From Escherichia phage vB_EcoS_HdSG1, in sequence record MK373795.1: a stretch of 63,595 nucleotides of DNA. One strand, written 5' to 3'. Each line of letters begins with the position of its first letter. The stretch's first letter is position 1. The notes beneath the pieces are model-generated. The model saw only the letters and a program-made list of their open reading frames with translations. It ran no database searches and was not told the DNA's origin. Below are positions 5,012 to 5,859 of this stretch, piece by piece. Both the position numbers and the translations under genes were made by a program.

Positions 5012-5368
5012 TTGATGAGCTTGCAACGTTTTGACAATGCAGAACTCGCGTGTGAATTTGCAAAGCGCAAGTTTGCTAAAACAGGTACGCCGCGATGCGT
5101 ACACGCGGCTATTGGGCAAAATGGGGCAAAGTATTGGTACGTTGGTACAGTAGCTCAGATCAAGCGAAGATTCGCGACTACGCCCGAAATGCGCCGGCTT
5201 GGGTCCCCTACACTTGTGCGAAACAGGCAGTTGGATAAAGAGGAAATTTATCAATTTCTTAGGAATTACACTGGTAAAGAGAATAGATTTCAGGTTGCAG
5301 CGAAAGAGTTTAATATCGGTCTTTCCACTGCTTATAAAATTTATCACATATATGGGCGTTTAATATGA
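5012..5368 (+). CDS. hypothetical protein
   Basis: 118-aa basic ORF. Confidence 0.55.
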   Translation: MMSLQRFDNAELACEFAKRKFAKTGTPRCVHAAIGQNGAKYWYVGTVAQIKRRFATTPEMRRLGSPTLVRNRQLDKEEIYQFLRNYTGKENRFQVAAKEFNIGLSTAYKIYHIYGRLI

Positions 5369-5859
5369 CCGCAATTGCTTATCGTAATGGTATATTGGCC
5401 GTAGATCGTCAGGTTACATGGGGTAATATTGCAACAACTACAGATAAAGTTCATACTGTTAATATTCCAGGAATTGGTCTTTGTCTTGTTGCGATGTCTG
5501 GTAAACTACGTCCTGTAACTGATATTGTGGATCATCTAAAAACTACGGTTCGTGGACGCAAAGAACCTTTCTCGGATTTAAATCCGGATTCCCGTTATGG
5601 TATTGCAGTGACGCAGGAACTTGTCGTATATCCTATCTACGGGGATGGTAAATTAGGTCTACCGGACACTAACGAATTTATTGCGGAAGGTAGTGCGTTT
5701 GAGTTCTTGATGGGTGCAATGGCGGGAGGTTGCACCGCAGAAGAGGCTGTACGGCTGGCGTGCGTATATTGCGACAGTTGTGGTCAAGGAGTTAAATTCT
5801 ATGACGTAGCCTATACTCTTAAAGTGGCGCAGTGTAAAATCGAGGAGAAACCATTTTGA
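5365..5859 (+). CDS. HslV/proteasome beta-like Ntn hydrolase (putative)
   Basis: Thr directly after Met; TAIAYRNGILAVDRQVTWG resembles HslV N-terminus [23 protein letters not shown]; later IAEGSAFEFL resembles HslV IAIGSGGPYA. Confidence 0.5.
   Translation: MTAIAYRNGILAVDRQVTWGNIATTTDKVHTVNIPGIGLCLVAMSGKLRPVTDIVDHLKTTVRGRKEPFSDLNPDSRYGIAVTQELVVYPIYGDGKLGLPDTNEFIAEGSAFEFLMGAMAGGCTAEEAVRLACVYCDSCGQGVKFYDVAYTLKVAQCKIEEKPF

Follow-up and report, generated by a model that had tools for sequence, protein, structure and literature searches.

A predicted proteasome/HslV-like N-terminal-threonine hydrolase of the PPH family, encoded near a C39-like peptidase gene in Escherichia phage vB_EcoS_HdSG1

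A 63,595-nucleotide stretch of DNA from Escherichia phage vB_EcoS_HdSG1 (sequence record MK373795.1; the whole stretch is hereafter called the window) was analyzed, with attention to one open reading frame (ORF) that an earlier note, made from the sequence alone, had described as a phage-encoded HslV/proteasome-like N-terminal nucleophile (Ntn) hydrolase. The ORF was found at the position given in that note, and its translation agreed with the description: the product opens with Met-Thr in the N-terminus MTAIAYRNGILAVDRQVTWG and carries a later internal block, FIAEGSAFEFLMGAM. The gene and its clade-specific 3' part are as follows.

5365..5859, + strand: predicted PPH-family proteasome/HslV-like N-terminal-threonine hydrolase; ATG at 5365 to TGA at 5859; 164 aa, of which residues 1-147 form the core
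5806..5856, + strand: clade-specific C-terminal extension, residues 148-164, VAYTLKVAQCKIEEKPF; a helix followed by the low-confidence tip Glu-Glu-Lys-Pro-Phe-COOH

The DNA of the region is 90-95% identical to that of the Nonagvirus phages 9g, JenK1, JenP1, JenP2, SE1, FritzHoffmann, and HdK1. The members of Nonagvirus (subfamily Queuovirinae) are virulent siphoviruses that infect E. coli and Salmonella and carry genes for 7-deazaguanine DNA modification. In comparison with eight close relatives, the codon changes in the gene were mostly synonymous (against JenK1, 18 were synonymous and 1 was non-synonymous; at 90% amino-acid identity, the ratio was about 2:1), and none of the copies contained a stop. 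Because of this synonymous excess, the lack of stops, and the presence of homologs down to ~26-30% identity, 5365..5859 is a real gene under purifying selection and not a chance ORF.

In the PHROGs search, the window protein was assigned to phrog_1040, "peptidase HslV family" (E=1.3e-34). The Pfam scan gave no Proteasome (PF00227) match at E<=1 and missed the gathering threshold, the NCBIfam scan gave no match to an HslV model, and the PDB search with the window sequence alone returned no match; the link to HslV is therefore drawn only through family profiles and the fold. A profile of 23 family sequences matched 20S beta and HslV chains in the PDB weakly (E=0.006-0.03), and a profile of 148 sequences matched HslV (1m4y) at E=3e-9, BPH at 1.3e-7, and beta5 at 4e-7. 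Individually, 44 of the 148 relatives matched Pfam Proteasome (E<=0.01; best 7.4e-8). The AlphaFold2 model built from the family alignment (predicted local distance difference test [pLDDT], 91.9; predicted template modeling [pTM] score, 0.86) adopted the four-layer alpha-beta-beta-alpha fold of Ntn hydrolases. When this model was compared with the PDB by Foldseek, the best 50 matches were all HslV, BPH, Anbu, or 20S beta (probability 1.00, TM score ~0.6), the top match being Thermotoga maritima HslV 1m4y (E=7e-7, TM 0.63), and 179 matches were obtained at E<=1e-3. On sequence profiles and predicted structure, we conclude that the window protein is a proteasome/HslV-like Ntn hydrolase, with homology that is transitive and by fold. 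The identity proposed in the earlier note was thus borne out by profile search against the proteasome-beta and HslV families and by structure prediction.

For the active site, the E. coli HslV sequence was taken from the MG1655 genome, and residues were paired by hhalign to that single sequence; the hhalign probability against one HslV sequence is meaningless, but the alignment itself is usable. The paired residues, with their conservation in the 148 family sequences and with the window protein numbered from its initiator Met, are listed here.

Thr2: Thr in 144/148 and Ser in 4/148; aligns to E. coli HslV Thr1
Asp14: 146/148; aligns to E. coli HslV Asp17
Lys28: 148/148; aligns to E. coli HslV Lys33
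Gly46: 147/148; aligns to E. coli HslV Gly48
Gly109: 148/148; aligns to E. coli HslV Gly123
Ser110: 84/148 (57%); aligns to E. coli HslV Ser124

The profile alignments reproduced the parallel that had been drawn by eye between the N-terminus and HslV around Thr1, including the Asp17 and Lys33 counterparts, and they paired A-E-G109-S110-A with HslV I-G123-S124-G, so that the proposed likeness of the later block to the HslV Gly-Ser-Gly loop was reproduced in the alignment as well. The N-terminal Thr was conserved among homologues, with Ser in the remaining four sequences. A Met-Thr start was present in 163 of the 176 relatives fetched by that stage. Since the relatives begin with Met-Thr and almost all of them align from residue 1 onward, the protein has no propeptide.

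The PPH family was defined by bioinformatics in 2021 (Fuchs et al., PMC8665760). In the searched text of that paper, PPH is described from tailed phages and prophages of Proteobacteria as a compact subunit of ~140 residues with no propeptide and no insertions, clustering with HslV and BPH; the absence of helix H2 is given as a defining feature, common only to RPC. In the AlphaFold2 model of the window protein, a single helix (48-58) stands where HslV has two and is followed by a loop (59-76), consistent with the absence of H2. These features suggest that the window protein is a PPH member, an assignment made by features and not by clustering with the representative WP_042125023.1.

The family is large (6,133 50%-identity clusters when matches to E<=1e-3 are taken, and 1,808 when only those to E<=1e-10 are), and most relatives are 140-150 aa long. 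Homologs occurred in 78 phage records, the same fold was found in at least 41 viral entries of BFVD, and 80 IMG/VR loci were taken, which fell into 52 non-redundant groups for a survey of the genes within ~5 kb of PPH. The RefSeq label "peptidase HslV family" already stands in JenK1, JenP1, JenP2, 9g, SE1, Seurat, and CAjan, and other records carry "proteasome subunit alpha type-2" or "HslV family peptidase." The statement that phage-borne proteasome-type peptidases are rarely described therefore had to be given up, since the PPH family has been known since 2021 (PMC8665760) and is represented by PHROG 1040, by RefSeq labels, and by the BFVD entries. The core identification mostly re-derives the existing annotation of a known family and is not new. 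Two copies in tandem are present in Aeromonas phages. In Aeromonas phage 2L372D, two adjacent "peptidase HslV family" genes were observed (3432-3983, 183 aa, and 4001-4885, 294 aa); this tandem pair could form a hetero-oligomer like proteasome alpha/beta, or could consist of PPH and a C-terminally extended form.

The earlier note had further suggested that the protein could pair with host HslU. In HslV, the C-terminus of HslU is accommodated by Phe54, Phe57, Gln114, and Ala79/Lys80 (PMC6429459), and a basic cluster on H2 (Arg86/Arg89/Lys90) lines the pore, with H2 making up half of the apical HslU-facing surface (PMC5777263). According to the alignment and the AlphaFold2 model, Phe54 and Phe57 are replaced by Thr52 and Val55 in the window protein, and the Ala79/Lys80 region falls in the absent H2. 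Neither the window nor the 5-kb surroundings of PPH in the 80 related viral loci gave a match in searches with E. coli HslU (phmmer, tblastn), and a conserved AAA+ partner was ruled out on this basis.

A phage peptidase that replaces host HslV on HslU hexamers and so redirects ATP-dependent degradation would agree with HslV being both the closest solved structure and the best PDB sequence match, and with the host E. coli encoding hslVU; as the phage has no unfoldase, any ATP-dependent activity would need that of the host. However, the window protein lacks H2 together with the Ala79/Lys80 and Arg86/Arg89/Lys90 positions (PMC6429459, PMC5777263), Phe54 and Phe57 of the pocket are substituted, it matches no NCBIfam HslV model, and the HslV descendant BPH no longer has the HslU interface and fails to bind HslU (PMC5777263). 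These differences make the replacement of HslV on host HslU highly unlikely. Judged from alignment and model, the window protein is not HslV proper and is probably not an HslU client.

The PPH gene belongs to a tightly packed gene run, the relevant members of which are given below.

3868..6753, + strand: run of eight abutting or overlapping genes (3868-4233, 4233-4571, 4571-5011, 5012-5368, 5365-5859, 5856-6047, 6044-6271, and 6253-6753)
4571..5011, + strand: C39/papain-like cysteine peptidase-like protein; 146 aa; Gln13, Cys19, His92, and Asp107 invariant
5012..5368, + strand: 118-aa protein of phrog_17085 (function unknown); sub-threshold C-terminal helix-turn-helix (Pfam HTH_7, E=0.088)
6253-6753, + strand: Rz-like i-spanin; Pfam DUF2514 (E=3.7e-11), phrog_312 (E=5.6e-42)

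In order, the run holds two genes for unknown proteins, the C39-like gene, the 118-aa gene, the PPH gene, two small genes, and the i-spanin gene, and it is probably one transcription unit. It opens at a divergent intergenic region, and the replication and modification genes run oppositely. The only strong terminator-like hairpin (6843-6869, + strand; a 12-bp stem followed by a T run) lies downstream of the run, past the spanin genes and ahead of the endolysin start at 6876, and suggests that the lysis genes belong to two separate transcription units; downstream of it, endolysin, holin, and terminase genes follow in the same direction. The earlier note had taken 3868..6271 for a small early cluster. 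This does not fit the end of the run with the i-spanin gene, its common direction with endolysin, holin, and terminase, and its divergence from the replication genes. In Klebsiella phage vB_Kpn2-P2 and two metagenomic relatives (33-36% identity), PPH is likewise followed downstream by spanin, lysozyme, and terminase. In Seuratvirus CAjan, endolysin and holin are directly downstream of PPH, and terminase was not seen in that locus. Promoter and terminator scans did not exceed shuffled expectation (17 sites vs 14.3 and 6 vs 4.3), and a literature search for transcriptomics of Queuovirinae yielded nothing relevant.

Three further observations were made around the run. Within the divergent intergenic region, three direct repeats of ~23 nt (window 3069-3144; consensus CGTGCCGAAAATACCAGGTAGC, spacing 26-27 nt) are candidate regulator-binding sites or phage promoters. 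In another frame over 6253..6753, the ORF 6371-6784 (+ strand) encodes a lipobox-like LLMTGC and a Pro-rich tail and is probably an o-spanin gene that lies in part inside the i-spanin gene; an o-spanin is annotated there in related records. The first ~32 residues of one PPH relative (P0026; 161 aa, NCBI) are near-identical, with 1 difference, to the start of this o-spanin frame at 6371, and beyond them the protein is the peptidase from about residue 34, which points either to a rearranged phage or to an assembly or annotation chimera.

The AlphaFold2 model of the 4571..5011 product (pLDDT 92.6) showed a papain/C39-type fold, and its best PDB matches were the C39 peptidase domain of the PCAT1 transporter (probability 0.99-1.0), followed by Josephin-2 and staphopain; on the sequence and the model, "C39-like" is a fair label. 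With only 5012..5368 between them, the C39-like gene is one gene upstream of PPH and not, as had been noted, two genes away. The pair is kept in four of the related loci (L002, L003, L009, and L010), and the C39-like gene is immediately upstream in every lineage relative examined. In L009 and L010, the two genes are adjacent or overlapping, and the small genes that lie between and beside them in the window have no homologs in those loci. The 118-aa product likewise has no homolog in L003, L009, and L010 (Seuratvirus and metagenomic relatives) and is kept only in Nonagvirus and the Klebsiella relatives; the gene at its position in vB_Kpn2-P2 is annotated as "late transcriptional activator," and blastp similarity between the two was absent at E<=1e-3. 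Among the matches listed for both families, all 14 phage records (14/14) had the C39-like gene 17-650 bp upstream of PPH on the same strand. The C39-like family occurred in 196 records and PPH in 78; more than 100 phage records, including Vi1-like, Vibrio, and Pseudomonas phages, had the C39-like gene with no PPH match, and PEi21 and others had PPH with no C39-like gene. The pair is thus a conserved module specific to the lineage of the 9g-like and related phages, and its two parts are not obligately linked. The module idea put forward in the earlier note is supported in this respect, as the pairing is kept where the surrounding genes have turned over. The anti-defence or host-manipulation role attached to it is pure conjecture.

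The pairing also bears on a non-degradative use of the PPH active site, namely peptide ligation or transpeptidation of the connectase type or an amidase activity toward a non-protein substrate, possibly together with the C39-like peptidase. The superfamily contains a ligase, connectase, in the searched text of PMC8665760, BPH showed no proteolysis in vitro, and the C39 type cleaves leader peptides at defined sites, so that its pairing with PPH hints at processing rather than bulk degradation. Connectase, however, belongs to a distant archaeal group of different architecture, whereas PPH clusters with HslV and BPH (same text of PMC8665760); moreover, no candidate substrate gene encoding a double-glycine leader emerged, and the C39-like family is present without a PPH match in the many phage records counted above. 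A ligating or amidase function is therefore considered very improbable.

Beyond the lineage of the window, the neighborhoods of PPH were heterogeneous across the 52 groups, and a universal conserved neighbor was ruled out. The commonest neighbors were TerL (10 groups), portal (8), and a T5-A1-like "DNA transfer" metallophosphoesterase (5), followed by a MuF-like head protein, the Ad1 adaptor, and an exonuclease (4 each); one arrangement reads TerL-portal-PPH-MuF. This weakly suggests a link with the late or packaging region in many phages, although accessory genes at module boundaries would look equally so. In five groups (L035, L044, L045, L054, and L080), PPH adjoins a metallophosphoesterase-type protein of ~512 aa, phrog_1745 "DNA transfer protein," the representative of which has an N-terminal zinc ribbon and GDTH and GHSH motifs; these motifs may correspond to those of T5 A1.

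Such neighborhoods raise the alternative of a morphogenetic or late processing enzyme that trims a phage head, ejection, or lysis protein and is not host-directed. In the lineage of the window, the gene is always just upstream of spanin, endolysin, and terminase, head and packaging genes lie within ~5 kb in part of the groups surveyed (TerL 10/52, portal 8/52, MuF-like 4/52, Ad1 4/52), and no recognizable prohead protease was found in this phage. However, the capsid module of the phage comprises an SPP1-gp13-type capsid protein and a separate scaffold, and to our knowledge such capsids mature without a protease; a prohead-protease role was judged unlikely for this phage. The folds of known prohead proteases are different, being either herpesvirus-protease-like or ClpP-like. 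Other PPH members adjoin early-type genes (metallophosphoesterase 5/52, exonuclease 4/52) or clusters of small accessory genes, and accessory genes tend to gather at module boundaries. Taken together, a processing function of this kind is unlikely.

The C-terminal extension sets the clade of the window apart from the rest of the family. Canonical members stop 1-5 residues past the last core strand, and members of this clade carry an extension of 12-19 residues that ends in acidic-x-Pro-[FWY] at the free C-terminus. AlphaFold2 predicted a helix at residues 148-160, and the final block (161-164) had a mean pLDDT of 49, so the tip is predicted to be flexible. The tail is kept in 11 distinct 50%-identity clusters with mutual identity of 28-54% (the window protein and P0029, P0033, P0034, P0036, P0037, P0054, P0057, P0115, P0011, and P0022), its ends including KIEEKPF (window), ELPEIPF, SEGIPF, DGDIPW, EMGDIPF, DEGGIPF, SDEDSPF, and DEEPVPW. 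As far as we can tell, this tail has not been noted before.

The free ends of the clade, with acidic residues ahead of Ile/Pro-Pro-Phe/Trp (e.g., GDIPF and DGDIPW; EEKPF in the window protein), resemble the tip of E. coli SSB, DFDDDIPF, which was checked in the genome; SSB has Ile where the window tip has Lys, and the likeness is a resemblance only. The SSB tip is recognized by host proteins such as ExoI, RecQ, PriA, RecO, Ung, Pol III chi, and others. The tail might mimic this tip, such that a ring of tails docks the peptidase on SSB-tip-binding host proteins and degrades or blocks them; if so, the protease would be aimed at the hub of host replication and repair and might work with the C39-like peptidase. 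Several findings weigh against such mimicry: the Klebsiella-phage relatives (55% identity) end in ...KDEE or ...KDEG without an aromatic residue, and within the 52 IMG/VR groups the tail is confined to that of Nonagvirus. The SSB of the phage itself has a different end, and a literature search for SSB-tip mimicry gave nothing relevant. We regard the mimicry as a doubtful possibility.

Considering the locus as a whole, we favor, with fairly good confidence, a compact PPH protein that acts as a stand-alone Thr1 peptidase without an HslU-type unfoldase, in the manner of BPH. Thr is a permitted second residue for methionine aminopeptidase, as in E. coli HslV, and the host enzyme would remove Met1 and expose Thr1. 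The Thr1 hydroxyl would then serve as the nucleophile, with the free amino group, Lys27, and Asp13 (mature numbering) completing the catalytic center. The helices H3 and H4 are retained and make up the block with the highest conservation in the family; they probably mediate stacked rings as they do in HslV and BPH. By analogy with BPH, such a self-contained peptidase would be limited to peptides and to unfolded or tethered substrates, and the Pro-Phe-ending clade tail would be its most likely recruitment or docking element. Because the gene shares an operon with the C39-like gene and the spanin gene, the protein probably acts in middle or late infection.

Several points count against this stand-alone peptidase. 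The window protein itself missed the Pfam Proteasome model, as described above, and Ser110 is kept in just 57% of the family. In the sequence alignment, the oxyanion-hole Gly45 of HslV pairs with Ala here, and the family is divided between Gly (70/148) and Ala (68/148). BPH, the nearest characterized stand-alone relative, was inert on standard substrates in vitro (PMC5777263). A literature search for functional work on phage HslV- or proteasome-like proteins returned nothing beyond the 2021 bioinformatic paper, and the probable middle or late timing derives from gene order only. Furthermore, in the phage 9g reference (NC_024146.1 30245-30738), a 1-nt deletion in an A5 run (window ~5538) splits the peptidase gene, and the RefSeq annotation of 9g covers only the 83-aa C-terminal part. 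Either the frameshift reflects a sequencing error in the homopolymer or the gene has really been lost; in the latter case, it may be dispensable in the laboratory.

The Ala at the oxyanion position and the frameshifted 9g copy would also suit a protein without catalytic activity that serves as a structural component or decoy and retains nothing but the fold. However, the oxyanion hole is made of backbone atoms, and Thr2, Asp14, and Lys28 are invariant or nearly so down to ~26% identity, a pattern expected only under selection for catalysis. A dead protein is thus the least probable of the readings and hardly to be expected, and the stand-alone Thr1 peptidase remains the one we prefer.

PPH is a large phage family (>6,000 50%-identity clusters), and the phage group to which the window belongs (9g, JenK1, and relatives in the BASEL collection) infects E. 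coli K-12, which makes it tractable for studies of PPH function. The conserved pairing with the C39-like gene and the SSB-tip-like tail are modest new leads and give two concrete hypotheses that mutation could put to the test.

Compared with known systems, the window protein shares most with PPH as defined in 2021 (Fuchs et al.): the source in a tailed phage of Proteobacteria, a compact single domain, no propeptide, the Thr1/Asp17/Lys33 set, and no H2; the closest sequence links of both are to HslV and BPH. PPH has ~140 aa, whereas the window protein has 164 aa, with the extra 17-residue C-terminal helix and acidic Pro-Phe tail of its clade. In the lineage of the window, the PPH gene is in addition paired with the C39-like gene, and the searched text of PMC8665760 contains neither this pairing nor the tail. 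According to the same text, RPC, the other group without H2, has an extra C-terminal domain and is found in Proteobacteria only, not in phages (PMC8665760); the 17-aa tail of the window protein, in contrast, is no domain.

HslV (ClpQ, MEROPS T1B) has in common with the window protein the Ntn fold, a Met-Thr start that is activated by removal of Met in HslV and would be so here, Asp17, Lys33, and, by sequence alignment, a counterpart of the Gly-Ser-Gly loop; no other protein matched better in structure (1m4y, TM 0.63) or in sequence. The two differ in that their identity is ~17% in structural alignments, in that the window has no HslU gene, and in that the window protein lacks H2 and the basic pore cluster and does not keep the HslU pocket residues Phe54, Phe57, and Ala79/Lys80. 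BPH (PDB 5ovs/5ovt/5ovu), the second-best structural match, is likewise derived from HslV and has neither a propeptide nor a partner unfoldase; it differs in being a cellular protein of ~185-200 aa that keeps H2, has a long pore loop, and forms heptameric double rings. By these likenesses, BPH offers the best functional analogy for the window protein.

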